Part shown: positions 20,448 through 50,272 of the stretch, one piece after another
Numbering within the stretch: the first letter of the stretch is position 1
Layout of the letters: every line of letters starts with the position of its first letter
Translations under genes and position numbers: made by a program
The notes under the pieces: generated by a model
The model's database searches: none
Told to the model about the DNA's origin: nothing
What the model saw: only the letters and a program-made list of their open reading frames with translations
Assembly (NCBI GenBank): GCA_041654895.1
Contig: JBAZCR010000004.1
Span: 1,188 to 65,187, forward strand
Reading direction: 5' to 3'
DNA: 64,000 nucleotides
Source: Candidatus Pacearchaeota archaeon
Lineage (GTDB): Archaea; Nanobdellota; Nanobdellia; Pacearchaeales; GW2011-AR1

Positions 20448-20523
20448 TGGTACTCCCAGAAGGACTCAAACCCTCATTTTTTCGTTCGTAGCGAAATGTT
20501 CTATTCATTTGAACTATAGGAGT
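20448..20523 (-). tRNA. tRNA-Arg (ACG)
   Basis: Hand-folded cloverleaf; loop CTACGAA; CCA encoded. Confidence 0.85.
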
Positions 20524-20561
20524 ATTTTATATAGTAATCTCCATCATTTTTTGTTTATTGT

Positions 20562-21059
20562 TTATTGTTTATCCGAAAACCTAACATCTCTATCATTACT
20601 TGATGCTGTAACAGTATAGATTATTTTATTATACATTCTATCAAGTCTTGAATCAAGTAATGCTTTTATTTTTATCTCAAACTCGTCAACATCCTCACAC
20701 ATTTTATTCAACCGATTTTGTACTTCATCATTATTTTTTTCAAATTCTAATTTGGATTTAGAAAAACATTCCAACATATCTTTTGATAACTCTTGAACCA
20801 TTGTTTTTATTTTTCTATTATCGGTGTTCATTTTCTCGTATACCGATCTAATTTCATCATCAATTCTAATCGTCAATGAATTTGACTCGGTATCTATATA
20901 TTTATATATGTCATCGATATCTTTATATATGTCATCGGAACAAGTAGTTATCCTTTCGTTTGTTAGCCTTAACTTATCCCTGAAATACATATAAAACAAA
21001 CATCCAGACACACCAAAAAGTATCCCAAAAATAACCCAAAACATAGTTATAAAATTCAT
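20562..21059 (-). CDS. membrane-anchored protein
   Basis: N-terminal hydrophobic helix; AAGGAG RBS. Confidence 0.5.
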   Translation of the reverse strand: MNFITMFWVIFGILFGVSGCLFYMYFRDKLRLTNERITTCSDDIYKDIDDIYKYIDTESNSLTIRIDDEIRSVYEKMNTDNRKIKTMVQELSKDMLECFSKSKLEFEKNNDEVQNRLNKMCEDVDEFEIKIKALLDSRLDRMYNKIIYTVTASSNDRDVRFSDKQ

Positions 21060-21144
21060 AATCATTCTCCTTTTATTAGGAGATTACTATATATGTCAAA
21101 GAACTTATAATCAATATAGTATTTTTATACTATCAAATCAAGAA

Positions 21145-21903
21145 TTATCTTCCCATTGAAAAAATAATACCAACTCCAATACCAAGACTAACATCATTTG
21201 TAAATGGATTATAAATACCACCTACTAAAAATCCAGGTCTCATATTAATATAGGGTCTTGATTTTTCATCGTGTTTAGTCCAACTATCTATATCATTAAT
21301 AATAAATCGTTCATCATTAGTAGTAACAGAAATTATATATTGTTCATCTCTTCTAAACAATCCTTTTCTTCTATACCCAGTAATTATATTTACTTTTAAT
21401 CCATCAACTTTAAATGTTGATTCAATATCAGAATTGATTATATCGGATGAATCCATAAAACATAATACATCTAAAGATGCTGTAACAAATGTAGTTACTA
21501 TACTGTCTTTCTGTTCAGACTTTAATGTGAATCTATTTGTGTTTGAATCAAGTATATCCTTATCAATTATAACAGTATCGTATTTGGTATTTACAATCCC
21601 CTGCATACGTAATCTCTGATAAGCATTCGATATTATATTTAATTCTTTTTCTAAGTTTTTCTTTTCGTTGTATAAATCAGAATTGAGAATTTTTAATTCT
21701 TTGTTTGTAGATGATATTGCCATCTTTTCAGATACCAATAAATCATTTTGTGTTCGATATATATTAATAGTATCATTGATTGCTTCAATATTAGAATTTT
21801 GCCTTTGTATATTTCTTTTTAACATATTATTAGTATTGCAAACCATACCTAATGATAACACCAAAATCACAATAGTTATTATTAAATATTTAGATTTAAT
21901 CAT
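21145..21903 (-). CDS. membrane-anchored protein
   Basis: ATG at 21903 after AAGGAG (the track start would overlap tRNA-Trp); N-terminal TM helix. Confidence 0.5.
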   Translation of the reverse strand: MIKSKYLIITIVILVLSLGMVCNTNNMLKRNIQRQNSNIEAINDTINIYRTQNDLLVSEKMAISSTNKELKILNSDLYNEKKNLEKELNIISNAYQRLRMQGIVNTKYDTVIIDKDILDSNTNRFTLKSEQKDSIVTTFVTASLDVLCFMDSSDIINSDIESTFKVDGLKVNIITGYRRKGLFRRDEQYIISVTTNDERFIINDIDSWTKHDEKSRPYINMRPGFLVGGIYNPFTNDVSLGIGVGIIFSMGR

Positions 21904-21921
21904 ATAAACTCCTTTTAAAAG

Positions 21922-21995
21922 TGGCAAGGGCAAAGAGAATCGAACTCCTATCTACAGTTTTGGAGACTGTTATGTTACCATTACAACATGCCCCT
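21922..21995 (-). tRNA. tRNA-Trp (CCA)
   Basis: Acceptor AGGGGCA/TGCCCTT, loop CTCCAAA, discriminator G, CCA encoded. Confidence 0.85.
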
Positions 21996-22900
21996 TTTAA
22001 AATATTTATATAATTGAATTAGGTTGAGATTACGCCTTTTGTGTTGATCCTTTTGATTCCGTACCATAACGATGCAACTCATTATGTTAAAATCTTATCC
22101 ACTTTCTCTTGAAAGTAGACCAACATTGCTGCCTTTTTTAAAGTGTAGCGGTTCACTTGTCGTATGCAACTATTCAACATTCAAATTACCCTCTATCTTG
22201 CGGACAGTTCACGGTCGCTAAACCATTAGGTGCATTTTCCTATCAACAGATTCTTTCCTTGCGAGAAATCATCTACCTACATTCAATACTAATTGTGCAG
22301 GATTAAGCAACTTTCATCACATACCGGTTCGGTCTTTGCATTTTAGTTAGGTCTATTCAAGGATTTGAACCTTAAACATTCAGATTGACGATCTGACGCT
22401 CTACCATTGAGCTAAATAGCAACCGATTGAGATGTGCCGAACCAGTGACTTCATAATATTTTGTACTACGAAATATCACACACCTCGTAAGTTTCATCTT
22501 GCGGATTACTTCTCGGATTTTCAAGACTAATGATACCTATAATTATAGATGTACCAAAAACCTTTCAATCTGATATAAAGCTCTTGTTTGCAGGACTCGA
22601 ACAATATATCTACTCTTTTCCCTCATAATTGGATGCTGGATAGGTGAAAAATATGTATCCCTACATATTTAACAGATGCTTTTGGTTATTACACCCTTTA
22701 CCGTCATCTTCCTTACTCAATTCCAACTTGTAATTGAAATTTGCAGGGATGAGCTTGCTTAATTAGACCATTTTATTGGTGGTGGTTAATCGGATACCCA
22801 CCTTTATATGTTTCACAACATACTATCTTTTATGTCAAATCTTTATGATTTGACAAACCATTTCAAGCAACGGTTATTTTTTTCTATATTTTCAAAGAAC
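21996..22900 (-). ncRNA. large ORF-free structured RNA candidate (about 0.9 kb) with an embedded tRNA-like domain
   Basis: Own promoter at 22907-22935; no ORF of 60 aa or more on either strand; GNRA-capped hairpins at 22649-22670 and 22807-22822; hairpin at 22834-22854; repeated motifs. Confidence 0.55.
22350..22421 (-). tRNA. tRNA-like, Asp-type (GTC) with C33 and a mispaired acceptor end
   Basis: D, anticodon and T arms fold; loop TCGTCAA; the first 2 acceptor pairs are mismatched; enclosed by a 9-bp helix (22437-22445 with 22324-22332). Confidence 0.45.
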
Positions 22901-22906
22901 AATACT

Positions 22907-22935
22907 AATATAATTTAAATCAAAATCAAAATCAA
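22907..22935 (-). promoter_or_regulatory. promoter for the large ncRNA
   Basis: Minus strand TTGATT, 17 nt, TATATT, then AGTATTGTTCTTTGA. Confidence 0.65.
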
Positions 22936-22960
22936 GTCTTTTTTTATTTATTTTAAAAAA

Positions 22961-23308
22961 TGGAGATAAGGGGAGTCGAACCCCTGTCCACAATTACATC
23001 CTAATAAATTTCTACAAGTTTAGTTTGTATTTTATATTCATCTAATAAGCATCTACAAACAAATTCTAATTAAATATATGTTCATTTTTCTAATCCTATT
23101 ATTGGAACAACCAAATAGGAATGCGTTATCTTATTTATTCATTCTACAATCGATAATTTATTATAGAATATAGCAACTTTTAGTTAAGCTGCTACAGCAA
23201 AAGAATAATCTTCAGCATTTATAATTTAGTAGATTTTTAAGAGGCCAACTACTATCCTCTACTTGCAATTCATTATTCCACAATCATGTCGAAACCAAAT
23301 ATATCCCC
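22961..23308 (-). ncRNA. ssrA: tmRNA (SsrA), tag AEDYSFAVAA
   Basis: 5' GGGGATATATTTGGTTTCGAC; G3-U70 acceptor; tag frame GCTGAAGATTATTCTTTTGCTGTAGCAGCTTAA; 3' GGACAGGGGTTCGACTCCCCTTATCTCCA. Confidence 0.9.
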
Positions 23309-23322
23309 TGTAAAATTTCAAA

Positions 23323-23395
23323 AAGGAGATTCCCGATTCGAACGGGAATTGTCATACTCAGAATATGAGGTTCTGACCAATTGAACTAATCTCCT
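23323..23395 (-). tRNA. tRNA-Gln (CTG)
   Basis: Acceptor AGGAGAT/ATCTCCT; loop TTCTGAG. Confidence 0.85.
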
Positions 23396-23401
23396 ACAAA
23401 A

Positions 23402-23478
23402 TGGTCTGGAATGAGGGATTTGAACCCCCGTGATCTTGGCCCCAAACCAAGCGCATAACCAAACTATGCTAATTCCAG
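23402..23478 (-). tRNA. tRNA-Pro (TGG)
   Basis: Acceptor CTGGAAT/ATTCCAG; loop TTTGGGG; CCA encoded. Confidence 0.85.
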
Positions 23479-23486
23479 ATAAAAAT

Positions 23487-23576
23487 TGGAAGCGGGGGCA
23501 GGATTCGAACCTGCGCTTCCATTTCTGGAAGATGAGCTTATGAGACTCACGAGCTAGACTACTACTCGACCCCGCA
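23487..23576 (-). tRNA. type II (long variable arm) tRNA with CAT anticodon, T1-T72 mismatch
   Basis: Loop CTCATAA; 18-nt variable arm with stem CTTCCA/TGGAAG; Tyr-like D arm; CCA encoded. Confidence 0.6.
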
Positions 23577-23583
23577 ATATATT

Positions 23584-23668
23584 TGGTACGTGAGGAGGGA
23601 GTCGAACCCTCAATCCCGAAGGCATGTGGGCTTAAACCACATGTGTATTCCAGTTCCACCACTCACGT
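23584..23668 (-). tRNA. tRNA-Leu (TAA)
   Basis: Loop TTTAAGC; long variable arm; CCA encoded. Confidence 0.85.
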
Positions 23669-23692
23669 ATTTATCTATCAAAGAACAATACT

Positions 23693-23721
23693 AATATAAT
23701 TTAAATCAAAATCAAAATCAA
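23693..23721 (-). promoter_or_regulatory. internal tRNA-array promoter
   Basis: Minus strand TTGATT, 17 nt, TATATT. Confidence 0.65.
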
Positions 23722-23740
23722 GTCTTTTTTATTTTTTTTT

Positions 23741-23816
23741 TGGAACCCCCCACAGGATTCGAACCTGTATATAATAGTTTAGAAGACTATTTCATTTCCA
23801 ATTATGATAGAGGGGT
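23741..23816 (-). tRNA. tRNA-Arg (TCT)
   Basis: Loop CTTCTAA; CCA encoded. Confidence 0.85.
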
Positions 23817-23842
23817 ATATTTATATTTCAAAGAACATTACT

Positions 23843-23871
23843 AATATAATTTATATCAAAACCAAAGTCAA
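23843..23871 (-). promoter_or_regulatory. internal tRNA-array promoter
   Basis: Minus strand TTGACT, 17 nt, TATATT. Confidence 0.7.
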
Positions 23872-23891
23872 GCTCTTTTTAATTAAAAAAG

Positions 23892-23973
23892 TACCCAGAG
23901 AGAGACTCGAACTCTCAATCCCGAAGGCAACAAGGTTTGAGCTTGTCGTGTATTCCAATTCCACCATCTGGGT
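23892..23973 (-). tRNA. tRNA-Leu (CAA)
   Basis: Loop CTCAAAC; long variable arm. Confidence 0.85.
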
Positions 23974-23979
23974 GTTAAA

Positions 23980-24054
23980 TGGTACTACTCCAGGGAATCG
24001 AACCCTATTTAAAATGGATATGAGCCATTCTAAGATGCCAACCTACCGAGTAGT
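23980..24054 (-). tRNA. tRNA-Met or Ile2 (CAT)
   Basis: Loop CTCATAT; canonical cloverleaf; CCA encoded. Confidence 0.8.
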
Positions 24055-24060
24055 ATAAAA

Positions 24061-24151
24061 TGGAGGAAGGAGAGGGACTTGAACCCCCATAACCGGTTAA
24101 GGTATACATTAGTTTTCAAGACTAATCTCTTACCAATTAGAGTATCCTTCC
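24061..24151 (-). tRNA. tRNA-Ser (TGA)
   Basis: Loop CTTGAAA; long variable arm; CCA encoded. Confidence 0.85.
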
Positions 24152-24308
24152 GAATCATTCCACTCTTGACCTAAACCACAGATATCACAAACATTGTTTT
24201 GTCTCTTTAATATATATTTTCTTATAGAACTTCTTGGACTACCTACAATATTTATTCCACCCGACAACCATTTTGAATATAATTATTATAAAGTGTGCAA
24301 TATATCGG

Positions 24309-24394
24309 AGGAGAGGAAGGGACTCGAACCCCAAGACACACGAAGTGTCTATACTGCTTCCGTAGTGTGACTATTCCCCACTGTCAACCTCTCC
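24309..24394 (-). tRNA. type II tRNA-like gene with a non-canonical anticodon arm
   Basis: Acceptor GGAGAGG/CCTCTCC, D arm, variable hairpin GACAC/GTGTC and T arm all fold; the anticodon region has only 3 bp and a GGAAGCA loop. Confidence 0.4.
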
Positions 24395-24401
24395 TCAATA
24401 A

Positions 24402-24478
24402 TGGTAGGACTGCCCGGAATTGAACTGGGGACCTTTGATGTATCAGATCAATGCTCTAACCAACTGAGCTACAGTCCT
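24402..24478 (-). tRNA. tRNA-Ile (GAT)
   Basis: Loop CTGATAC; CCA encoded; one A-C mismatch in the T stem. Confidence 0.8.
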
Positions 24479-24485
24479 ATAAAAT

Positions 24486-24560
24486 TGGTGGAGCATATCG
24501 GTACTGATCCGATGGTCTGTAGATTGCAAATCTACGGCTTTCCCATTAAGCTAATGCCCC
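24486..24560 (-). tRNA. tRNA-Ala (TGC)
   Basis: G3-U70 pair; loop TTTGCAA; CCA encoded; unusual T loop ATCAGTA. Confidence 0.8.
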
Positions 24561-24650
24561 ACATATTTAAAAAATTTCAGATTGACTTTTTTTCTATTGA
24601 AGGTAGAATTGTTTTTTGTTGCTGAAATCAATCTTCTAATTTTTTATTTC

Positions 24651-24734
24651 TGGTGGGAATGGTGGGGTATGATCCCACATTTTCAATTACCAGTTACGAC
24701 TATACGCATTATGAGTGCGCCTCGATACATTCCC
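24651..24734 (-). tRNA. tRNA-like gene, CAT loop, no D arm, 25-nt extra region
   Basis: Acceptor GGGAATG/CATTCCC; hairpin GCGCA-CTCATAA-TGCGT; T arm GTGGG/CCCAC; CCA encoded. Confidence 0.4.
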
Positions 24735-24762
24735 AAAAATGTTTATGATGTCAAAGAACAAA

Positions 24763-24837
24763 TGGTGGCTGCTGTCGGTATCGATCCGACCTCTCCTGCT
24801 CTTCAGGCAGACGCTAATCCATCTCAGCTAAACAGCC
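24763..24837 (-). tRNA. tRNA-Phe (GAA)
   Basis: Loop CTGAAGA; CCA encoded. Confidence 0.85.
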
Positions 24838-24944
24838 ATTAAATTTAAAGTTAATCTTTTAAGAATTATATAAATAAATTTAAGTGGGTTGAGTATTACC
24901 AGTACCCAACCCTATCCAACACAACTTAACCGAGGAGAAAAGTC

Positions 24945-25697
24945 ATGTCAGACAGAATTATTTATTATCTTTATAAAACCACAAATTTGATCAATAATAA
25001 AATTTACATCGGTGTTCATCAAACTAAAAATCTTAATGATGGTTATCTTGGTTCTGGTCTAAATCTTCAAAGAGCTATTAAAAAATACAGTAAACATAAC
25101 TTCAAAAAAGAAATCCTAAAATACTTTGACAACGAAATCGATATGTTTACCGAAGAAATTAAAGTTGTTAATTCTGATTTCATTAAACGTAAAGACACCT
25201 ACAATATAGTTGAAGGTGGACGTGGTGGTAGTAAACAATTAGTGAAATTAGCACAACAAGCATTACAAGAAAAATATGGTAGTGATTGGAGAAAAGAACA
25301 CATTAAAAACGCAACCCAAGCATTACAAGAAAAATATGGTAACGATTTTATGAAAATCCTCAATAAAAAAAGTGTAAAATCTCTTCAAGAAAAATACGGT
25401 GATGATTGGCATAAAATAATCGGTTTAAAAGGTCAAGAAACTCTCAAACAAAAATATGGTGATGATTGGCACAATATAATTAGTAAAAGAGGCCGACAAA
25501 AAGCATTATCACCCGAATCTAGAGCCAAACGTATAAATTCCTTTAAAAATGTCAACCACCAACAAGGTTCAAAAAATTCACAATATGGAACAATGTGGAT
25601 TTACCATACCGACACGAATCATAACATGAAGATTAAAAAAGATGAACCAATTCCTAAAGGTTACATCAAAGGTCGTAAATGTCAAAGAACAAAATAA
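24945..25697 (+). CDS. GIY-YIG homing endonuclease
   Basis: IYYLYKTTN...KIYIGVH...GYLGSG; four LQEKYG(D/S)DW repeats; opposite strand to the flanking tRNAs. Confidence 0.8.
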   Translation: MSDRIIYYLYKTTNLINNKIYIGVHQTKNLNDGYLGSGLNLQRAIKKYSKHNFKKEILKYFDNEIDMFTEEIKVVNSDFIKRKDTYNIVEGGRGGSKQLVKLAQQALQEKYGSDWRKEHIKNATQALQEKYGNDFMKILNKKSVKSLQEKYGDDWHKIIGLKGQETLKQKYGDDWHNIISKRGRQKALSPESRAKRINSFKNVNHQQGSKNSQYGTMWIYHTDTNHNMKIKKDEPIPKGYIKGRKCQRTK

Positions 25698-25720
25698 ACT
25701 TCACTACCCGTGAATTTATA

Positions 25721-25811
25721 TGGAGGAAGAAAGGGGACTTGAACCCCTATAACCAGTTAAGGTGTACATTAGTTTAGCAAACTAACCTCTTACCAATTAG
25801 AGTATTCTTCC
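25721..25811 (-). tRNA. tRNA-Ser (GCT)
   Basis: Loop TTGCTAA; long variable arm; CCA encoded. Confidence 0.85.
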
Positions 25812-25832
25812 AAAATTATCAAAGATCAAATG

Positions 25833-25904
25833 GGTGAGGTACGAGATTTGAACTCGTCCTAACAGAGTCACAGTCTGTCGTGCTACCACTACACTAATCT
25901 CACC
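25833..25904 (-). tRNA. tRNA-His (GTG) with encoded G-1
   Basis: Loop CTGTGAC; extra 5' G opposite C73. Confidence 0.85.
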
Positions 25905-25911
25905 ATAAAAA

Positions 25912-25985
25912 TGGTAGCCCATCCCGGAGTTGAACCGAGGGTTACTGATAGAAAGTCAGTCGTGTTACCACTACACTAATGGGCC
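25912..25985 (-). tRNA. tRNA-Glu (TTC)
   Basis: Loop CTTTCTA; CCA encoded. Confidence 0.85.
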
Positions 25986-25999
25986 ATAACTTAAAAAAA

Positions 26000-26085
26000 T
26001 GGTGGGTAGAGGAAGATTTGAACTTCCAAGCCCCGAAGGGACCGGATTTACAGTCCGGAGAGCCAGACAATTGCTCAACCTACCC
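26000..26085 (-). tRNA. tRNA-Tyr (GTA)
   Basis: Loop CTGTAAA; bacterial-type long variable arm; CCA encoded. Confidence 0.85.
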
Positions 26086-26091
26086 AAAATA

Positions 26092-26165
26092 TGGCGGGAT
26101 GACGAGTTTCGATCTCATTACCTCTGACTTGTGGGCCAGTGCTCTCCCGATTGAGCTACATCCCC
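26092..26165 (-). tRNA. Val-like tRNA with a 6-nt anticodon loop (CCACAA; CAC if U33 is absent), G1-G72 mismatch
   Basis: D arm TAGCTCAATCGGGAGAGCA; stem CTGGC/GTCAG encloses only 6 nt; CCA encoded. Confidence 0.45.
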
Positions 26166-26189
26166 ATAAATTTTATCAAAGAACAAATT

Positions 26190-26265
26190 TGGCAGGGGTG
26201 ACGGGTTTCGATCCCGCTACTTTCAGATTGACAATCTGACGTTCTCCCAATTGAACTACACCCCT
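26190..26265 (-). tRNA. tRNA-Asp (GTC)
   Basis: Loop TTGTCAA; discriminator G; CCA encoded. Confidence 0.85.
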
Positions 26266-26271
26266 ATATAA

Positions 26272-26348
26272 TGGCTGGTGAGGAGGGAATTGAACCCCCA
26301 ACCTTCTGGTTAACGGCCAGATGCTACTGCCAATTGAGCTACTCACCA
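26272..26348 (-). tRNA. tRNA-Asn (GTT) with C33
   Basis: Loop CCGTTAA; otherwise a canonical cloverleaf; CCA encoded. Confidence 0.75.
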
Positions 26349-26373
26349 ATAAATTTTATCAAAGAACAATAGT

Positions 26374-26402
26374 AACATAATTTATAATAAAGTTAAAGTC
26401 AA
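26374..26402 (-). promoter_or_regulatory. internal tRNA-array promoter
   Basis: Minus strand TTGACT, 17 nt, TATGTT. Confidence 0.6.
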
Positions 26403-26438
26403 GTTTTATTTTAATTTCAAAGAATAAATAAAATAGGT

Positions 26439-26513
26439 TAATTATAAACAGATTCGAACTGTTATTACTCAAGCGATCAACTTGCAGTGCTTTACCAATT
26501 AAGCCATATAATT
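26439..26513 (-). tRNA. tRNA-like gene with an aberrant anticodon arm and extended AT-rich acceptor
   Basis: D arm GCTT/AAGC and T arm AACAG/CTGTT fold; anticodon region CAAG-TTGATCG-CTTG; flanks extend the acceptor to 11 bp (26435-26517). Confidence 0.35.
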
Positions 26514-26530
26514 AACCTAAATAAAAACGG

Positions 26531-26604
26531 AGCCGGTGAGAGGAATCAAACCTCCAAATCTTCCCATTACAAGTGGGTGGCTTTATCAATTTAGCTACAC
26601 CGGC
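26531..26604 (-). tRNA. tRNA-Thr (TGT)
   Basis: Acceptor GCCGGTG/CACCGGC; loop CTTGTAA. Confidence 0.8.
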
Positions 26605-26610
26605 ATAAAA

Positions 26611-26655
26611 TACCCCCACAAGGAATCGAACCTTGCTCTATAGATTATTGGGGTG
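26611..26655 (-). other. acceptor/T-arm minihelix (tRNA 3'-half-like remnant)
   Basis: CAAGG-TTCGATT-CCTTG T arm plus TGGGGGT; only a 5-bp partner and no D or anticodon arms. Confidence 0.4.
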
Positions 26656-26689
26656 AGATATTTCAAAGATCATTTTTACTTACCCTACT

Positions 26690-26718
26690 AATATATATTC
26701 TGAATTTATCAAAATCAA
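26690..26718 (-). promoter_or_regulatory. internal tRNA-array promoter
   Basis: Minus strand TTGATT, 17 nt, TATATT. Confidence 0.65.
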
Positions 26719-26737
26719 GTCTTTTTTTATTTTTTTA

Positions 26738-26822
26738 TGGTACTCTTGGAGAGATTCGAACTCTCAATCCTTTCGGCATTAGTTTCTAAAACTAACGTGT
26801 ATTCCATTTCCACCACAAGAGT
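26738..26822 (-). tRNA. tRNA-Leu (TAG)
   Basis: Loop TTTAGAA; long variable arm; CCA encoded. Confidence 0.85.
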
Positions 26823-26825
26823 ATT

Positions 26826-26912
26826 TGGTACTGGAGGAGAGACTCGAACTCTCAATCCACAATGGACAATGGCTTCTTAGACCATTGTGTATACCAGTTC
26901 CACCACTTCAGT
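26826..26912 (-). tRNA. tRNA-Leu (AAG)
   Basis: Loop CTAAGAA; long variable arm; one A-C acceptor mismatch; CCA encoded. Confidence 0.7.
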
Positions 26913-34384: not shown

Positions 34385-36100
34385 TTAAGCACCACATCCA
34401 GCATATCCACATTCACAAGTAAAACATCCAGATTGCATTATTAATTTATCGCCACCACAAGAAGGACATTTCATACCCACTATTTCTTTTCCATCGTCAA
34501 TAGTCTCTGCTAAGAACTTTCTAACAGCTGTTAGTAAGGTAGAGATATTATCTCCTTCGATTCCTGTTAAAGAAACAAGTATATCTTCCCTTGGTATGTT
34601 ATGTCTTAAACACAATGATAACATTCTTCCAAGTCTATTATGAGGACTATCACCTAAGCATTTATCCCAAGTATCATCAATTAATTTATGTTTAAGTCCA
34701 CATTCTAATGCTAATTTTGAAAGAGATTTACAAGCTCTATTACAAGCAATAGCTTCACCTTTTTGGTTAGTATGTATCCACATTGCAATTGGATATTTCA
34801 TATTTGTATCTTCTTTCAAATAAGAAAAATGAATATAAAATTTCATACCTTCTTTTTTAATAATTTTAGTAGGTCCATTAATAAATTCGGAAGGTAATAT
34901 AACACCATCTTTAATTATTTCTTTCTTTTCTTCTACTTTCTCTAAAGTTTCAATAACAGATTCCATTGATCCAGTACGATAAGTAGTAACACCAACTAAT
35001 CCTCTTTTCCAAGCATCAATATATAAATTCTTAAAATTAGAAAAAGAATATTTATTTGGTAAATTAATAGTTTTACTTACCGATTGATTACAATAATATT
35101 GACACATTGATTGTATATTTAAATGATCTACTATATCAATATCATTTGCAGTAATTTTAGTGTTTATTTTCTCGTGTGGTTTATTATCCAATAACCATTG
35201 ATACCCATAATCTCTTAATATATAAACTTCACATATTCCTCTGTTATGTGGTTCGTAATAATAATGTTTACCATTATATTCTCCTTCCCAATATACAAAA
35301 TCATTTTCTTTTACTTCTTTGAATAATTTTTTAATATTATCAGAATTTAACCCTTCCGGCCATTTACACATAATTTTTCTTTCTGTTTCCAAAGAAAAAA
35401 TAGGTTCAATACCATTTGAAACATAATCACATATAATAGAACTGTTTCCAAGAGGAGGAGCAGTTGTTGTTTTAGCATTTCTAACACCATATTGTTTAAT
35501 CAAATCTTTAGTTTCTTCCCAAAGTCTATCAGATTTAAAATATTTTGTATTGGAATATAATTCATAATCAAAAAGAGGGAATGGTCCTTTTTCTTTTGCA
35601 AGTAAAGCAGATTCCTGCATTGTTAAGTTTTCTTTACATTCGTGTATTGTTTTAGTAAAAGTAACCGCATCAGGAGAATTATATGGAATACCTAACATTA
35701 ATAAAGTAGAACCCAAACCATTTACACCCATACCAAATTGCCTTAAATTCTGAACTGCCCATTCATATGAAGGTAAAGGCAATTTACTTAAATCACAAAC
35801 ATTATCTAACATTCTAGTAAAGACTCTAATATCTTGTTTATATGTATCCCAATCAAAATAAGAAACACCATCACTAATATATACATATTGAGTTAGGTTA
35901 ATTGACCCCAAAAGACAAACTGTTGTCATATCTGGATTACCTGGAATTTCTCCACAATTATGAACAAGAATACCGTTTGCAAAAAAGTTGTGATTATTTT
36001 CTGTTGTTATGTCATACACATCAGCATTTTCTTTAATATTAATTTTTTTTATTTTTATTTCTTTAATATTTGGATTTTTGTTTTTCTGACTTTTTTCCAT
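34385..36100 (-). CDS. nrdJ: class II ribonucleotide reductase, C-terminal fragment preceded by a split-intein C half
   Basis: Starts with IntC ...NHNFFANGILVHN, then extein CGEIPG...; C-terminal CxxC...CxxC. Confidence 0.8.
   Translation of the reverse strand: MEKSQKNKNPNIKEIKIKKINIKENADVYDITTENNHNFFANGILVHNCGEIPGNPDMTTVCLLGSINLTQYVYISDGVSYFDWDTYKQDIRVFTRMLDNVCDLSKLPLPSYEWAVQNLRQFGMGVNGLGSTLLMLGIPYNSPDAVTFTKTIHECKENLTMQESALLAKEKGPFPLFDYELYSNTKYFKSDRLWEETKDLIKQYGVRNAKTTTAPPLGNSSIICDYVSNGIEPIFSLETERKIMCKWPEGLNSDNIKKLFKEVKENDFVYWEGEYNGKHYYYEPHNRGICEVYILRDYGYQWLLDNKPHEKINTKITANDIDIVDHLNIQSMCQYYCNQSVSKTINLPNKYSFSNFKNLYIDAWKRGLVGVTTYRTGSMESVIETLEKVEEKKEIIKDGVILPSEFINGPTKIIKKEGMKFYIHFSYLKEDTNMKYPIAMWIHTNQKGEAIACNRACKSLSKLALECGLKHKLIDDTWDKCLGDSPHNRLGRMLSLCLRHNIPREDILVSLTGIEGDNISTLLTAVRKFLAETIDDGKEIVGMKCPSCGGDKLIMQSGCFTCECGYAGCGA
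35957..36100 (-). mobile_element. split intein 2, C half (48 aa)
   Basis: DVYDITTENNHNFFANGILVHN followed by +1 Cys. Confidence 0.8.
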
Positions 36101-36151
36101 GATTTTAGTTCCTCTTTGTATGATGTATTAGTGTAACCTGTGGTTATTTTC

Positions 36152-36892
36152 TTATATTTTTATCAATATATCATCTTCGGTTAATTCAGAAGCATTAACA
36201 TACCCTCTATTCTTTGTATATACTTTGTGATCAGGAGTTAATGTTACCGACGTTCCATCTTCCAATTCCAATTCTATAACATTAGTGTTATCTCTGGTTT
36301 TATCCCCAAATGTAACTTTTTCAAATTCAAATTTATTATTATTAATATTAAATGTTAAAACATTTATATCATTTCCTTCTCGAATTTCTTCTATTATTGA
36401 TCGAATAGTCATTTTCCCTTTAGTTGTATCAATTAAAGTATCACCAACTAAGCAAGGGTTGGTCGCGTTACATTTACCTAAATATTCAATAGGATTATTT
36501 TCAGAAATATTATCAACAAAAATAACACCTGGTTCTGCTCTATTATAAGTAGATTTCATTATCAAATCATATAAGTCTTTTGCCTTTACTCTTTTAATGG
36601 TTTTCCCTTCCCATTTCAAATCCCAAAAAGAATCATTTATTACACATTCCATAAAATCATTTGTAATAGCAACTGACAAATTAAATTTCGTCAATTTACC
36701 AGGTTGTTGTTTTATTTTAACAAATTCTTCAATATCAGGATGTGAACAATTAGATGTATAAAAAGCATTTTTAGACCTCTTATCCTTTGCTATAATTCTA
36801 TGTACATTTTCAACAGAAAAATCATAAGAGTTGTCAACTTTTTTCGGAGTAATACTTTTTAATTTCTGAAATTGTACTTTTAATTTTTGCAT
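36152..36892 (-). CDS. nrdJ: class II ribonucleotide reductase, middle fragment flanked by intein halves
   Basis: IntC (..NAFYTSN) + extein CSHPDIEEFV...NATNP + IntN (CLVGDTLI...ILIKI stop). Confidence 0.8.
   Translation of the reverse strand: MQKLKVQFQKLKSITPKKVDNSYDFSVENVHRIIAKDKRSKNAFYTSNCSHPDIEEFVKIKQQPGKLTKFNLSVAITNDFMECVINDSFWDLKWEGKTIKRVKAKDLYDLIMKSTYNRAEPGVIFVDNISENNPIEYLGKCNATNPCLVGDTLIDTTKGKMTIRSIIEEIREGNDINVLTFNINNNKFEFEKVTFGDKTRDNTNVIELELEDGTSVTLTPDHKVYTKNRGYVNASELTEDDILIKI
36155..36454 (-). mobile_element. split intein 2, N half (100 aa)
   Basis: Begins CLVGDTLI inside the NPCGE active-site motif; TLTPDHKVYTKNRGYVNASELTEDD; ends at a stop. Confidence 0.8.
36749..36892 (-). mobile_element. 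split intein 1, C half (48 aa)
   Basis: ATG after GAGGA; YDFSVENVHRIIA...NAFYTSN followed by +1 Cys. Confidence 0.7.
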
Positions 36893-37204
36893 TATTATCC
36901 TCACTTACTAATGTTATTATATATTGTTTTATTGTTTCCAAATCGTTATAAATATCCTTTTCCCAAAATCTCAATGTGATATATGGTCTTCCATCCATAT
37001 CCTTTTTATTTTTTAATAAATTTTCTTTTAGTTTATCAGCAACTCTATTATTTTTCTATCTTCAATATTAGAAAAAACTTTAGAACTTCTGTGCCAATAG
37101 TCCCCATCTATTTCAATGACAAAAATATAATTATTATGCCAAACAAAAAAATCCCATTGTTTATTTTCGGGTAGAAAATATGATGACTCCCCAACATAAA
37201 CCAT
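36834..37204 (-). pseudogene. Vsr/DUF559-like homing endonuclease between the intein halves, frameshifted
   Basis: VIEIDGDYWH in one frame; ADKLKENLL..GRPYITLRFWEKDI in another; the break is at the T5 run 37051-37055. Confidence 0.6.
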
Positions 37205-37220
37205 ATCCAGGATGTCGTAT

Positions 37221-38207
37221 TTACTCCGATATAATTATTTTTAATTCTTCATTTTCAACATCAATATCTTTAATTGCTTTTAAATATATTTCCCCAGTAG
37301 TAATATTTCTAACTTCAAATTTATGATCTTGAGTTACCTCAATTATAGAACCATCCTCGGTTTCAACCTCAAATATTTGTTCGGGTTCTTTTTCAAAAGC
37401 ATCATAAATTAAATTTAATTCTCCGGTATCGGAAACACATTTTATTTGTTTTCCACTAATAACATCATCAACAATATCAACAATATTTCTCCAACCAGAA
37501 TCGGTTAATATTAATGTATTTTTTGAAAAACAAGATAAAACACCCATCATAGCACCCTTTCTTGGCATCTTATTAATTACATCAATACATTCATCCATTT
37601 CTTTTTTAGATAAATAATTTTTTAATGTATCAACATAACCATCATCATGCCCTTTCACAATACATTCAGAAACAGAATCGAATATTTTCATATACGAAAC
37701 AACTCCTGGGTGTCCTACTCCCGTCCCTTTAATTAACGATCCTCTTGGTCTAATAAAATCGAAATTTATACCCCATCCACCCTCGGATGCTAATGTTTTT
37801 GCTTGTTCTAAAACAGTCAAAAATATATTGATTAAATCATCACCTGTATCTGGAGTTTTTATTTTAGTTGTGTTTTCGAAATTATCATTTTTTCTTGTGT
37901 ATTGTATTTTTGCATTTTTGACAGGTCCGGAGATAAAACAATTAATTAATGTTGCTCCATTATATTCTGTTCCAATGTTAGATGTAATACGACCACCAGT
38001 ACTACATTTAATTCCAATAGGTTCTGAACCATTAAATTTAAGTAATGTTTTTAAGAATACATCTTCCCATTGTTCGGGATTTTTTTCTTTTGATGCCAAT
38101 ACTTTAGCTATTCTTTTAAATGTTCCTAAAGGAGATTCATCATTATATTGATATTTACTCTTCCAGTTCTCATATCCTATTCTAGTCTTGAAAAAATTTT
38201 CACCCAT
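37221..38207 (-). CDS. nrdJ: class II ribonucleotide reductase, N-terminal fragment ending in a split-intein N half
   Basis: SEGGWGINFDFIRPRGSLIKGTG, KGAMMGVLS, then CFSKNTLILTD... to a stop. Confidence 0.8.
   Translation of the reverse strand: MGENFFKTRIGYENWKSKYQYNDESPLGTFKRIAKVLASKEKNPEQWEDVFLKTLLKFNGSEPIGIKCSTGGRITSNIGTEYNGATLINCFISGPVKNAKIQYTRKNDNFENTTKIKTPDTGDDLINIFLTVLEQAKTLASEGGWGINFDFIRPRGSLIKGTGVGHPGVVSYMKIFDSVSECIVKGHDDGYVDTLKNYLSKKEMDECIDVINKMPRKGAMMGVLSCFSKNTLILTDSGWRNIVDIVDDVISGKQIKCVSDTGELNLIYDAFEKEPEQIFEVETEDGSIIEVTQDHKFEVRNITTGEIYLKAIKDIDVENEELKIIISE
37224..37532 (-). mobile_element. split intein 1, N half (103 aa)
   Basis: Starts with Cys (TGT at 37532-37530) after GAMMGVLS; TQDHKF block; ends at a stop. 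Confidence 0.7.
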
Positions 38208-38228: not shown

Positions 38229-38687
38229 TTAATTGTTCCACAAATCTTTTTCTGTTATTATTTTAAATTCCAATCCTTTTTTATTACAAAAATCCACGGC
38301 AGCTTTCCATTTATCTTGATTTTGTATATACATTTTTTGTTCATACAAATATCTATCTGTTCTCTTTTTTGATCTATTTTTTGGTTTGGATGGTGGTAAT
38401 GTACTTTTATATGGTTTTACTTCTATTAAGAATTTTTTGATACCATTGTTAGTTTTTATTTCCACATACGCATCAACATAGTATTGATGTACTTTATTAT
38501 CTACTGAATAAAAATAAGGGATTACTACACATTCAGAACACCATTTCAAAACATTTTGATTAAAATCTAGATAGTAAAATAATCTTCTTTCCCACGATGA
38601 TCTATATACGGGAGGTTTTGTGCTACAATATTTTTCTTTATTCTGAACTTCATATTTCCCTTTTAAAAATTCATTTCTTTTACTCAA
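38229..38687 (-). CDS. PD-(D/E)xK nuclease, TnsA-N-like
   Basis: SSWERRLFYYLD...YYVDAYVEIK...LIEVKP pattern. Confidence 0.5.
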   Translation of the reverse strand: MSKRNEFLKGKYEVQNKEKYCSTKPPVYRSSWERRLFYYLDFNQNVLKWCSECVVIPYFYSVDNKVHQYYVDAYVEIKTNNGIKKFLIEVKPYKSTLPPSKPKNRSKKRTDRYLYEQKMYIQNQDKWKAAVDFCNKKGLEFKIITEKDLWNN

Positions 38688-46903: not shown

Positions 46904-47575
46904 TTAAAATGAAATGAAGCTACTCAATTCATTTGTTTCTAACTTAATTTTACCCCAATCAAGCACGTCAAAAAATCTCTGAATTATATCCTCAAAAGAT
47001 TTTTGCCATTGAACATCATAATCAATTTCAAACATATCATTGAATTGTTCAGGCCAAGTACCCAAATATCCAATTATATTAGAATGTATTATATTATTAG
47101 GTTTTATATATACAAATCCTATTTTACTACCATTAGAAATGTACTGCAATTTCATTTTATTAGTGGAAATAATATAATTATAACATATAGATGCTCTAAC
47201 GTGAATGGGAGTTGCACTTTTAAAACGTAGACCATTCTTAGTATATTCAGACATACTTAAAGAATATTTATCATAATCACTTACACCCCTTGGAAACGAA
47301 ATATTATCTACTTTAGTTTCTTTAAATTCTTCATAAATATTTCTCAAATAATCTAACGTCTTTTCCTTATCTTGATGTTTTAATAAAAACTTCATAACAT
47401 CAGTTATTTTATCTTTACAAAAAGATGGAGTTGAAGTTCTAACAACTTCTATTCCTGTTACTTGTAATTTAGGTTCTTCATATATTGTTCCTTCTTTATC
47501 AATACAAAGAACACAATATTTCTTTTTTGCAAGAACCATCATTTTAGTAATGATTTTTTCACGTTTAAAATTCAT
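46904..47575 (-). CDS. family B DNA polymerase, C-terminal (thumb) fragment
   Basis: FKREKI..VLAKKKYCV, VTGIEVVRTSTP; start overlaps the upstream stop as ATGA. Confidence 0.8.
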   Translation of the reverse strand: MNFKREKIITKMMVLAKKKYCVLCIDKEGTIYEEPKLQVTGIEVVRTSTPSFCKDKITDVMKFLLKHQDKEKTLDYLRNIYEEFKETKVDNISFPRGVSDYDKYSLSMSEYTKNGLRFKSATPIHVRASICYNYIISTNKMKLQYISNGSKIGFVYIKPNNIIHSNIIGYLGTWPEQFNDMFEIDYDVQWQKSFEDIIQRFFDVLDWGKIKLETNELSSFISF

Positions 47576-47877
47576 AACATTTGTAGTATTATATTTTTTT
47601 CACGAATATCAAGAATCTTATTAAAGAAAGGACTCAAGTAAAGTTTATCCATTTTATTTGCCCATTGTCTAAATTCTTCATTGTTTTCAAATTTAAATCC
47701 ACAATTTTCAATGATTTCATCAAAGCATAAGTATGATGAATTATGAACCAAAATATCATTACCAAAAAAATTATGATTATCTTCAACCTCAATATCATAA
47801 ACATCTAATTCTTGTTCACCTAAACATTCTATTTCAAATTCATCAGTTTCTATATATCCATCAAAAAATTCTTGCAT
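47572..47877 (-). CDS. split-intein C half + short polymerase extein segment
   Basis: ...DNHNFFGNDILVHN, then SSYLCFDEII; the frame ends 1 nt out of register with the next ORF. Confidence 0.75.
   Translation of the reverse strand: MQEFFDGYIETDEFEIECLGEQELDVYDIEVEDNHNFFGNDILVHNSSYLCFDEIIENCGFKFENNEEFRQWANKMDKLYLSPFFNKILDIREKNIILQML
47740..47877 (-). mobile_element. polymerase split intein, C half (46 aa)
   Basis: ELDVYDIEVEDNHNFFGNDILVHN followed by +1 Ser. Confidence 0.75.
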
Positions 47878-48070
47878 TTTTCAATTTCCTTTTTTTGTTG
47901 AGGTTATAATCATCTTCCCAAATATAATAAATTTCAAATCCCAAGTCACTAAAAAAATTCTTTTTATTTTGATCTTTTAAGATTTGGTTTTCTGCTGATA
48001 TATTACTAAAAGGATTTTTCCATTTCTTGATATATTTTTCATTGTCGGGATATTTTACAAATTTCCACAA
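47861..48070 (-). pseudogene. remnant of a Vsr/DUF559-like homing endonuclease
   Basis: Only the C-terminal KDQNKKNFFSDLGFEIYYIWEDD part; no ATG; the open frame runs back into the IntN end. Confidence 0.5.
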
Positions 48071-48113
48071 ATGCCTCCAATTGAATCGGTGTCTATTATA
48101 GTAACAGAAGTAT

Positions 48114-50261
48114 TCATATCTTTTTTGTTATAATTTTGTCTCCTTTTTGAATATTTTTTGGCTTAACATCCATATATTTACCATTTCTTTTAATAATTAT
48201 TGAATGGTCTTCGGTACATATAACTTCTTTTCCATTAACTTTAATTTTATACATATTTTTTTTCACATTATGTTTCATAACATATTTAATTTCTTTATTT
48301 TCTAATTGACCAGATTTTTTATTAATAGAATCCGTTGTATGCAAATCTCTTAATTTACCTATAAATTTAGAATCCCCATACTCATTAATCTCACTACAAA
48401 AATTAAATAATTCTTCAATTGTAAAAGTACCATTATTAGTTTTAATTTTTGTATCCCCAACAACACTATCCGTATCCACCAAAACCACCACATCTTTTTC
48501 AATAGGTTTTATTTCTTTTCCTTTCAATTCAGGAAAGTGTTTATGAGCAATTTTATGCCAATTTTGTTTCATATATTTGTTAATATTAGATGAAACATAA
48601 GTAATCATATCTCTTGCACCAATAGTAATTGCCATAGCATTTTTAATATTATAGAAAGAAAAGAATCTATTACCCAAAACACCATACATAGAATTAATTA
48701 AAATTTTTCGTATTTGTTCTTGGGAATGATAATATGAGGATGTATAACCTTCTTTATCTATTTCTTTAGATAATTCATAAACATAATTTTTTTCCATAAA
48801 AGTATTTCGAGAAATATCATCCAAAGTAAGATTACTTTCCAATCCTTTCTTAACTTTTGATTTATCCTTTAATCTTTTTCTTTCATTGAAAATATTTTCT
48901 ACTATTTCAGCAAGTAGTCCTTTTTTGGTTTTATCATAATAAATACCATCAACAGAAAATTTACCACTAGGAGTATCACATTCATATAAATTGGAAGCAG
49001 CTGTTTTAATTAAATTATCATCGACAATTCCAGGATGAAACCTAAGTGTTTCAGGAGATATGTTATATTGAATCATTATTTTTGGATATAGGGATTCAAA
49101 GTCATATGACATTAAATAATGATATATTCCAGGTTTTGCCATAACAAAACCACCAGGATACGATTCGACCTCTCCCCTTACAATATCAGGCATAACCATA
49201 TTTTTCTTATGTAGATATCTCATCATATATCCTGTAATTAATGATATTGATGAAAATATTCGTTCAAATGGAATTAATGCTTGATAACAAAAATTAATTG
49301 TAAGTTCTATATGTTTCATTTTATCTTCAATTTTTTTTGTCAATAAAACATCTTGAACATTATATTCAACATATCCATTCCAATCTCTTGCCCATAAATC
49401 ATTTATTTGACCATCATAATCCAATTTACCCTCATTAACTTCTATTTTTCCTATTGCCTGCAATGAATATGATACTCTTTTCTTAAAAACAAAATTTTTA
49501 TACAAGTCTTGACCATCTAATATAGATATACCGGCTACAGTATATCCACCCTCTGATATATGATATCCAGAATTTCCTTTCTTTTCCACATATATATTTA
49601 ATGGAGATAATGATAATTCTATTTTTAATTTGTTACATCTATTAATAATATATGTTACATCAAAATTACGACTATTCCAACCAGTAATAATATCTACTTT
49701 CTGTTTTCTAAAATGTTTAATGAATCTCTCTATCATAACTTTTTCATCTGCACAATAATGATAATTTTTTACTAAAGGACTATTACCAGTATAAGGTCTA
49801 ATACCAAACGTAAACAATTCATTAGTCTTAGAATAATGAATAGTTAAACAATTTATTTTATATTCTGCTTCTTTTACCATTTGTGGGAACGGTGGTGGAT
49901 TATCATCAATTTCAAGTTCTATGTCAATTGTAGCAACTTGAAAATCACCCATATCGACCTCAAGTGTTTCGTTTACATATCTTTTTTGTAAAAATTTAAT
50001 ATCTTCTGATATTGATGTTTCACAAGTATTAATACCAGAAGAATTAGCAAAATCTCTCATATCTTTAACGGATTTAGATGTTTGTTTTTTAACCGAAGTT
50101 CCCCAAATGTCGGTAATATTTGATTTATTAGTTTTATCAGGAAGATAATATTCTATTTCAGGTTTAATAGAATACTTACGATTACTACCATCATCATCTG
50201 TTTCCCATAAAAAAATTCTGTTAGTTTTATTATTATAATAGATTCTTCTAAACCCTTTCAT
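48114..50261 (-). CDS. family B DNA polymerase, N-terminal fragment ending in a split-intein N half
   Basis: Exo motifs (TIDIEL, NSRNFDV, YNVQDV), SLYPKI, KILINSMYG, LVDTD, then SVVGDTKI...; ATG at 50261 after AGGAGG. Confidence 0.85.
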   Translation of the reverse strand: MKGFRRIYYNNKTNRIFLWETDDDGSNRKYSIKPEIEYYLPDKTNKSNITDIWGTSVKKQTSKSVKDMRDFANSSGINTCETSISEDIKFLQKRYVNETLEVDMGDFQVATIDIELEIDDNPPPFPQMVKEAEYKINCLTIHYSKTNELFTFGIRPYTGNSPLVKNYHYCADEKVMIERFIKHFRKQKVDIITGWNSRNFDVTYIINRCNKLKIELSLSPLNIYVEKKGNSGYHISEGGYTVAGISILDGQDLYKNFVFKKRVSYSLQAIGKIEVNEGKLDYDGQINDLWARDWNGYVEYNVQDVLLTKKIEDKMKHIELTINFCYQALIPFERIFSSISLITGYMMRYLHKKNMVMPDIVRGEVESYPGGFVMAKPGIYHYLMSYDFESLYPKIMIQYNISPETLRFHPGIVDDNLIKTAASNLYECDTPSGKFSVDGIYYDKTKKGLLAEIVENIFNERKRLKDKSKVKKGLESNLTLDDISRNTFMEKNYVYELSKEIDKEGYTSSYYHSQEQIRKILINSMYGVLGNRFFSFYNIKNAMAITIGARDMITYVSSNINKYMKQNWHKIAHKHFPELKGKEIKPIEKDVVVLVDTDSVVGDTKIKTNNGTFTIEELFNFCSEINEYGDSKFIGKLRDLHTTDSINKKSGQLENKEIKYVMKHNVKKNMYKIKVNGKEVICTEDHSIIIKRNGKYMDVKPKNIQKGDKIITKKI
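48117..48467 (-). mobile_element. polymerase split intein, N half (117 aa, Ser1)
   Basis: Begins at Ser (AGT at 48467-48465) inside the DTDS motif; TEDHSIII block; ends at a stop. Confidence 0.7.
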
Positions 50262-50272
50262 CAACAAACCTC

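Follow-up and report, generated by a model that had tools for sequence, protein, structure and literature searches.

How can three separate reading frames, each carrying a part of one enzyme, yield a single protein? The question is raised by positions 34385-38207 (minus strand) of the stretch of DNA analysed here, a window of 64,000 nucleotides from contig JBAZCR010000004.1, in which three consecutive open reading frames (ORFs) of 328, 246 and 571 codons (hereafter F1, F2 and F3) are publicly annotated as hypothetical proteins (MFA5484936.1, MFA5484934.1 and MFA5484933.1). An initial annotation, made by a model from the sequence, had read them as a class II ribonucleotide reductase (RNR) gene fractured by two split inteins. 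Sequence comparison confirms that the three ORFs together encode such an enzyme (NrdJ), interrupted by two split inteins, and we consider it quite likely that a large bacteriophage rich in tRNA genes carries here an nrdJ gene that has truly been fractured twice.

The identity of the enzyme is clear once the four intein halves are removed in silico. The resulting 846-residue protein (225 + 98 + 523) scores 428.1 bits against the NCBIfam model TIGR02504 NrdJ_Z (adenosylcobalamin-dependent RNR), whose cut-off is 399.95, and its best match in the PDB is the B12-dependent RNR of Thermotoga maritima (NrdJ, 1xje), with an alignment that is unbroken over both junctions: RKGAMMGVLS-CSHPDIEEF is aligned with RRGALMGILNINHPDIEEF at junction 1, and NATNP-CGEIPG with NSTNPCGEI-G at junction 2. 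Pfam likewise finds the RNR barrel in pieces that follow in order through F1, F2 and F3 (profile positions 8-71, 75-212 and 194-523), and parts of the intein-splicing domain where F1 and F2 end and where F3 begins. The initial annotation had placed both junctions in conserved RNR motifs and suggested looking for uninterrupted homologues; metagenomic relatives that lack an intein at one or the other site have QMVTMSCWHPDIEEF (MS-CWHPDIEEF) at site 1 and NATNPCGEVPG at site 2. Together with the continuous alignment, they define both splice junctions. The insertion sites, marked here by a slash, are conserved active-site motifs, GA.M..L(S)/C.HPDIEEF for intein 1 and NP/CGE for intein 2, and the spliced product contains the NPCGE loop, the thiyl-radical Cys of which serves intein 2 as +1 residue.

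Both inteins are split at the usual position of endonuclease insertion, into an N-terminal half (IntN) of about 100 residues and a C-terminal half (IntC) of 48, with catalytic residues in place, as expected for the two split inteins first proposed. In intein 1 (site GVLS/CSHPD) the class 1 residues are C1, TQDH, D127/H134, N151 and the +1 Cys. Taken alone, the window copy gives weak evidence (Pfam E 0.013; PDB E 0.003 to DnaE inteins), and for this reason its homologues were collected. Throughout the resulting alignment of nine sequences, eight split and one contiguous, C1, TxxH (T67, H70), the block-F Asp/His, the NAFYTSN end and the +1 Cys are invariant, and the intein 1 profile matches DnaE split inteins in the PDB (E 1.4e-6), Cys1 and TxxH lining up with theirs. 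AlphaFold was uninformative on the single sequence of the fused halves (predicted local distance difference test, pLDDT, 33). Given a 27-row alignment, it returned a model with pLDDT 96.6 and a predicted template modelling (TM) score of 0.88, for which each of the top 50 Foldseek matches among PDB entries is an intein or a related Hint/Hedgehog-type domain (TM 0.65-0.81). The fused halves are thus predicted with high confidence to adopt the HINT intein fold. When all of 1.84 billion representative proteins were searched with IntN1 by HMMER, only 25 clusters matched at E <= 1e-10; all those inspected are NrdJ, and in most of them the intein half lies at the very C-terminus, that is, split. A pattern scan for IntC1 over 185,579 GTDB genomes returned chance matches only, and we found no description of this intein family in the papers searched. 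The two inteins of the window are 28% identical to each other and alignable over their full length.

Intein 2 (site NATNP/CGEIPG) belongs with NrdJ-1, an experimentally ultrafast split intein that was reportedly treated by Carvajal-Vallejos in 2012. Its fused halves match the solved NrdJ-1 structure (PDB 8ubs) at E 1.8e-26, with 43% identity over 153 columns, and its HINT fold is assigned by this match. The class 1 residues are again present (C1, TPDH, YDITTENNHNF, a terminal HN that keeps the penultimate His, and the +1 Cys). NrdJ-1 is, with NrdJ-2 and gp41-7, one of the fractured-gene loci of Dassa, London, Stoddard, Schueler-Furman & Pietrokovski (2009, NAR 37:2560, PMC2677866), whose text places it one residue C-terminal of the thiyl-Cys site, and it has an obligate Ser at +1 (PMC13123727; PMC11168065). 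The close resemblance that had been noted at first is real, extending to the host enzyme, the split position, the segments TPDH.VYTKNRGYV and HNFFAN.ILVHN and the acidic N-half and basic C-half, but the window intein is inserted one residue upstream, before the thiyl Cys, with Pro at -1 and Cys rather than Ser at +1. By sequence, it is a homologue of NrdJ-1 and not the same allele. The register seen here (NP/C...HN/CGE) is that of every NrdJ-1-like locus retrieved, N(P/L)/C...N/C(G/N)E (L007, L008, L012, L026, L122 and L002; L and P numbers designate retrieved relatives).

The three ORFs seem to be translated separately. Shine-Dalgarno-like sequences precede all three starts: GGAG 9 nt 5' of the ATG of F1, GAGGA 7 nt 5' of the ATG of F2 at 36892, bearing out the ribosome-binding site that had been ascribed to this fragment, and AGAGGA before F3. 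Terminator-like sites are absent from gap 1 and gap 2, and scans of the gaps for promoters, terminators and hairpins gave nothing above background, promoter-like sites being no more frequent than in shuffled sequences. With separate ribosome-binding sites and no terminator in the gaps, an operon of three separately translated cistrons is the simplest reading, and the three ORFs are probably co-transcribed. The coordinates of all features are collected in Table 1.

Table 1. Parts of the fractured nrdJ locus, followed by neighbouring features of the window (aa, residues).
Feature	Position	Strand	Description
F1	38207-37221	-	328 aa = N-extein 225 aa + IntN1 103 aa, then stop
F2	36892-36152	-	246 aa = IntC1 48 aa + extein 98 aa + IntN2 100 aa, then stop
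F3	36100-34385	-	571 aa = IntC2 48 aa + extein 523 aa
F1 N-extein	37533-38207	-	NrdJ residues 1-225, end RKGAMMGVLS; Pfam Ribonuc_red_lgC/lgN
IntN1	37224-37532	-	103 aa, CFSKNT...KIIISE, Cys1, block B TQDH; stop 37221-37223
Endonuclease remnant	36834-37204	-	Vsr-like (EDxHD-type), decayed; ORF 37204-37028 and ORF 36998-36834, frameshift between
IntC1	36749-36892	-	48 aa, MQKLK...NAFYTSN; block F YDFSVENVHRIIA; penultimate Ser, not His
F2 middle extein	36455-36748	-	98 aa, CSHPDIEEF...NATNP; Pfam Ribonuc_red_lgC E 7e-17
IntN2	36155-36454	-	100 aa, CLVGDT...TPDHKVYTKNRGYV...ILIKI; Pfam Intein_splicing E 2e-8; stop 36152-36154
Gap 2	36101-36151	-	51 bp, no ORF; contains the AGAGGA ribosome-binding site of F3
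IntC2	35957-36100	-	48 aa, MEKSQ...ILVHN; ends NHNFFANGILVHN
F3 C-extein	34385-35956	-	523 aa from CGEIPG; Cys-rich tail CPSCGG...CGYAGCGA, stop; Pfam Ribonuc_red_lgC E 4e-57
tRNA array	20448-26912	-	24 tRNA genes and bacterial-type transfer-messenger RNA (tmRNA) 22961-23308, tag AEDYSFAVAA; genome of 26% GC
GOLLD RNA	22021-22486	-	Rfam RF02032, 169.9 bits (gathering score 150); in tRNA array, encloses tRNA-Asp 22350-22421
ORF 5' of F1	38229-38687	-	152 aa, TnsA-like/PD-(D/E)xK nuclease domain, Pfam PF08722 E 4e-18
PolB N-fragment	50267-48114	-	717 aa, ends VLVDTD/SVVGDTKIK...ITKKI; 236-bp gap follows
PolB IntC ORF	47877-47572	-	101 aa, starts MQEFF...NHNFFGNDILVHN/SSYLCF

What the gaps contain tells something of how the gene may have come apart. 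The first had been given as 316 bp, a length that holds if one counts to a GTG upstream of F2 at 36904; from the F1 stop to the ATG at 36892 it is 328 bp. The 51 bp of the second are confirmed. The decayed Vsr-like endonuclease that had been noticed in gap 1 is there as a frameshifted remnant, and its decay goes further than a frameshift. In tblastn searches with the intact gap ORFs of L007 (345 aa) and L006 (347 aa), only their last ~110 residues are matched, in two frames (E 1e-14 and 4e-20); the N-terminal ~235 residues are lost, leaving the C-terminal third of a gene of ~345 aa. The frame changes at an A5 run, AGAAAAATAAT, where one inserted A restores a continuous alignment. Alignment with relatives shows that the remnant keeps the invariant ExDGDYWH...RFWE motif, and at its 3' end it shares 59 nt with the start of F2, an overlap with the next ORF that the intact genes show too. 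Such intact ORFs, of 338-365 aa, occupy gap 1 in L005, L006, L007, L111, L117, L122 and L186/187, and half-decayed ones, broken in two, are found in L185 and L188/189. Their C-terminal domain reads QFDF...E.DGDYWH...R...D..K...RFWE, with a Glu 7 residues before the His and an aromatic-Trp pair preceding it, features that Dassa et al. (PMC2677866) give for their Vsr-like family. Profile comparisons gave weak matches or none: the top PDB match of the catalytic-domain profile is I-Bth0305I (3r3p; E 0.028), hhalign against E. coli Vsr aligned D51 and H69 at a probability of only 6.6%, the Pfam MTES_1575 match of the domain is below threshold, and the full-length profile gave against the PDB only noise from a Cys-rich region. 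Gap 2 of the window holds no endonuclease gene; in L007 it contains a separate 251-aa ORF, unrelated to the endonuclease, and in L122 it is ~740 bp long. The stub in gap 1 and the empty gap 2 would thus present side by side two later stages of the model of Dassa et al., endonuclease decay and endonuclease loss.

The three-ORF layout is found again in independent metagenomes, and the relatives show the two sites in a variety of states. The exteins of the window are ~60% identical to those of L153/L111, where site 1 is split and site 2 empty, and of L118 (8158-4601), which carries a contiguous mini-intein 1 at the same site and another contiguous mini-intein at site 2; with the remaining doubly split lineages they share no more than 27-40% identity. 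Intein 1 is 50-61% identical to its counterparts in all these lineages, and the window intein 2 is nearer the inteins of a distant NrdJ subclade than the site-2 inteins of its own. This excess of intein over extein identity across most lineages fits, and the sequences are consistent with, a horizontal spread of the inteins; alternatively, the higher identity could come from a stronger constraint on the inteins. The subclade of the window has retained a dUTPase gene downstream in synteny. Within it, gap 1 is seen with an intact endonuclease (L111, L186/187), with one broken in two (L185, L188/189) and with the window stub; site 2 is either vacant or occupied by an intein, a mini-intein or one of larger size, and the window is the only doubly split member seen. 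The doubly split loci of a second subclade are P0002, P0003/L007 and P0005/L006/L091/L122. The lineage P0006/L002-L005 and L128 has a third split intein upstream, making three in one nrdJ, and also contains a group I intron (Rfam RF00028, 88.9 bits, E 3e-22; L002 1390-1642, L003 1625-1877) two codons after the end of IntC2 (HN/CG^). In P0186, intein 1 is contiguous, the end of IntN1 running directly into an IntC1-like Met (KIIEIMEQKKK), which suggests either a pre-split ancestor or a re-fusion. Other inteins were met in these genes: L005 506-1099 begins with a further IntC (IIVHN/SFLRPSG), preceded by another Vsr-like ORF; L107 (4862-3105) has an intein after AMSK/C near the C-terminus of NrdJ; P0182 and P0190 have LAGLIDADG-type inteins after NCF/ or NCL/ in the N-terminal domain; and L140 has a LAGLIDADG intein at site 2 with a terminal Gln instead of Asn.

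The anatomy of the locus, its homologies, its conserved catalytic residues and its recurring layout are observed, as is the fold predicted for intein 1; from these we infer what would happen in transcription, pairing, splicing and enzyme activity. Two mini-inteins would once have been inserted at two conserved active-site motifs of nrdJ, and a free-standing homing endonuclease gene would then have cut each of them at the loop where endonucleases insert; in gap 1, this gene would have decayed to a frameshifted stub of its catalytic domain, and in gap 2 it would have been lost entirely. Each ORF would be translated from its own ribosome-binding site. The acidic IntN1 (net charge -14) would pair with the basic IntC1 (+7), and IntN2 (-7) with IntC2 (+5 over its first 25 residues), each pair folding into a HINT domain. 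Class 1 splicing would follow, with an N-S acyl shift at Cys1, trans-thioesterification to the +1 Cys, cyclisation of the Asn and an S-N shift. Two such trans-splicing events would join 225, 98 and 523 residues into an adenosylcobalamin-dependent RNR of 846 aa.

Could the breaks be apparent only? An assembly or sequencing artefact, with inteins that are really contiguous and stops and gaps that are errors, is hardly credible. The frameshift of the endonuclease remnant does lie at an A5 homopolymer, a typical error site, and the contig is metagenomic; however, gap 1 has 8-9 stop codons in every reading frame, so that one base error could not rejoin the intein halves, each fragment has its own ATG and Shine-Dalgarno sequence, and the cuts fall exactly at the canonical split site. 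Moreover, a second public assembly (ENA ERZ27247346) has the identical sequence over 6.7 kb including the locus, N-extein + IntN1 ends at the same place in at least 18 independent clusters (90% identity), and the whole layout recurs at several loci in which the endonuclease gene of the gap is intact. A break that the ribosome itself repairs would be of another kind: by translational recoding, it could bypass gap 2 and join F2 to F3 as in T4 gene 60, whose coding gap of 50 nt is close to the 51 nt found here. Bypassing is named as a formal alternative by Dassa et al. (PMC2677866). Gap 2 has, however, neither matched take-off and landing codons nor a significant hairpin (z = -0.4), F3 has a Shine-Dalgarno sequence and an ATG of its own, and homologous inteins have their natural split site at just this break, their halves being separated elsewhere by gaps of 95-740 bp or by endonuclease genes; we give recoding very little credit.

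If the breaks are real, the fragments might still never be ligated. They could be the relics of a decaying pseudogene in a phage without functional NrdJ, which we deem unlikely. The endonuclease of gap 1 is clearly decaying, such a fate was proposed by Dwivedi et al. for some intein-riddled phage nrdA genes (PMC3653736), and splicing could be poor with Pro at -1 and no penultimate His; yet the three ORFs are intact over 1,145 codons at 26% GC, where random ORFs are short, all RNR motifs and intein nucleophiles are kept, and these residues stay unchanged even between lineages with no more than 27-40% identity in their exteins. Alternatively, the intein halves could serve as dimerisation handles in a non-covalent, three-chain enzyme. 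NrdA of phage Aeh1, split by the mobE endonuclease, works unligated (PMC3045599; discussed by Dassa et al., PMC2677866), and the same unfavourable residues, the -1 Pro at site 2 and the penultimate Ser at site 1, speak for it. Against it, Cys1, TxxH, the terminal Asn and the +1 Cys are invariant where drift would be expected were splicing dispensable, and, to judge from RNR structures, the active site should be disrupted by ~150 aa of intein left attached on either side of the thiyl-radical Cys, within the NPCGE finger loop; this explanation is very unlikely. Both are disfavoured because every splicing nucleophile is strictly conserved across divergent lineages.

Several points nonetheless weigh against a spliced, doubly fractured gene. 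The conserved element of hairpin and late promoter that Dassa et al. describe, TATAAATA, was not found 5' of the gap gene or of the C-part (fold z = -0.4 to +0.9). Both intein pairs share the same charge polarity, which is also that of NrdJ-1 (N-half acidic, C-half basic; Dassa et al., PMC2677866), and their orthogonality may not be guaranteed; F2, with its IntC-extein-IntN geometry, would cyclise if the pairs cross-reacted. The remaining two concern the chemistry. At site 1, the penultimate residue of the intein is Ser and not His in 9/9 aligned homologues; inteins that lack the penultimate His are known to splice. At site 2, the insertion of intein 2 before the thiyl Cys makes Pro the -1 residue (codon 36455-36457), and Pro at -1 impairs splicing, or is regarded as incompatible with it, in the literature on NrdJ-1 (PMC13123727). 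The same Pro is found in every thiyl-Cys-site class II RNR intein seen, split or contiguous (L007, L008, L012, L118, L122, L140, L185 and L187). The contiguous ones among them (L118, L140, L185 and L187) must splice for the enzyme to work, so the site-2 family presumably tolerates Pro at -1 and may be adapted to it.

A doubly fractured nrdJ whose fragments are ligated would have further consequences, which we advance tentatively, and with some doubt about the picture as a whole. The locus could be a three-piece assembly line run by two co-evolved, orthogonal split inteins, F2 avoiding its own cyclisation; intein 1 would represent an uncharacterised family (Ser penultimate, Cys1/Cys+1), and intein 2 would splice natively with Pro at -1. 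As the +1 nucleophile is in either case a cysteine from the active-site region of a radical enzyme, ligation could gate the synthesis of deoxynucleotides, possibly on redox or on stoichiometric expression during infection.

The surroundings of the locus agree with a phage. The source contig was deposited as a 'Candidatus Pacearchaeota archaeon' metagenome-assembled genome (locus tags WC260_01665-01680), a label contradicted by the phage replication module of the window (family B polymerase, DnaB-like helicase, UvsX-like recombinase, SbcC-like nuclease and RNase H/FEN) and by its tmRNA; it is probably a mis-binned large bacteriophage. A blastn search of the locus against 50,697 phage records returned short RNR-core matches only and no related annotated phage. 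The TnsA-like ORF 5' of F1 may be another free-standing nuclease flanking nrdJ, and has no detectable relation to the gap 2 ORF of L007.

A second fractured gene of the window encodes a family B DNA polymerase (PolB; 46904-50267, minus strand). Its fused intein matches the cysteine-less Aes123 PolB1 split intein (PDB 9hth) at E 7e-43, with Ser1 and Ser+1, and the junction restores the DTDS motif. With the two of nrdJ, this makes three split inteins in this phage. The C-part of PolB is broken again at 47572-47575, where the end of the 101-aa ORF overlaps in ATGA the start of a 223-aa ORF (47575-46904, KKKYC); a frameshift, an error or a genuine additional split could account for this. Within the PolB gap, an ORF of 69 aa (47861-48070, minus strand) was considered as the tail of a Vsr-like endonuclease, its end GFEIYYIWEDDYNLNKK (YYIWEDDY) resembling RFWEYDI, and was rejected for want of support (hhalign E 0.48).

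If the fragments of nrdJ do ligate, the locus would be a natural case of tandem protein trans-splicing, so far only engineered with orthogonal intein pairs, and the two pairs would be shown to coexist in one cell and one gene. It would also provide candidate tools, in the form of a new split-intein family and of an NrdJ-1-like intein with Cys at +1 and a tolerance of Pro at -1. Together with its relatives, the window displays, at two sites of one gene, the life cycle proposed by Dassa et al., from mini-intein through endonuclease invasion, split gene, endonuclease decay and loss, possibly to re-fusion.

How far does all this resemble what is known? The match to fractured-gene architecture that had been proposed at the outset is borne out, as N-half and C-half ORFs lie at the same locus in the same orientation, twice. 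As in the loci of Dassa et al., a conserved phage gene of DNA metabolism is broken within an intein, presumably through a free-standing homing endonuclease gene, which in gap 1 would be of a Vsr-like family, and its parts have remained adjacent, with their own translation signals (at F1/F2 and again at F2/F3); the loss of the endonuclease in gap 2 has its parallel in their gp41-7 locus and in step III of their model. The window differs in being fractured twice, into three polypeptides that need two trans-splicing events, in its gap 1 endonuclease, a truncated and frameshifted stub, and in that no conserved upstream hairpin was seen. We found no description of one gene fractured twice by two different split inteins in the literature searched; by sequence, the arrangement appears to belong to the known kind, and the double fracture and the intein 1 family appear new to that literature. 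The endonuclease itself may share with I-Bth0305I and the EDxHD group (3r3p; PMC3239194), to which its match is weak, a C-terminal catalytic domain with the pattern D...E.DG.(Y/F)WH...D and the spacing of the Glu; the intact relatives have at their N-terminus a Cys-rich, zinc-ribbon-like region instead of NUMOD/helix-turn-helix, and the window copy is a non-functional remnant. Intein 1 finds its best profile match in the DnaE split inteins (Npu/Ssp DnaE), with which it has in common the class 1 residues, the split position and the charge polarity; the identity is ~20-25%, the host protein is another one, and DnaE has halves dispersed in the genome and a penultimate His, whereas intein 1 has adjacent halves and a penultimate Ser. 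Finally, several contiguous inteins at the active-site motifs of one RNR gene are familiar from Trichodesmium and Pyrococcus, for example, where they splice in cis within one polypeptide; in the window, both inteins are split.

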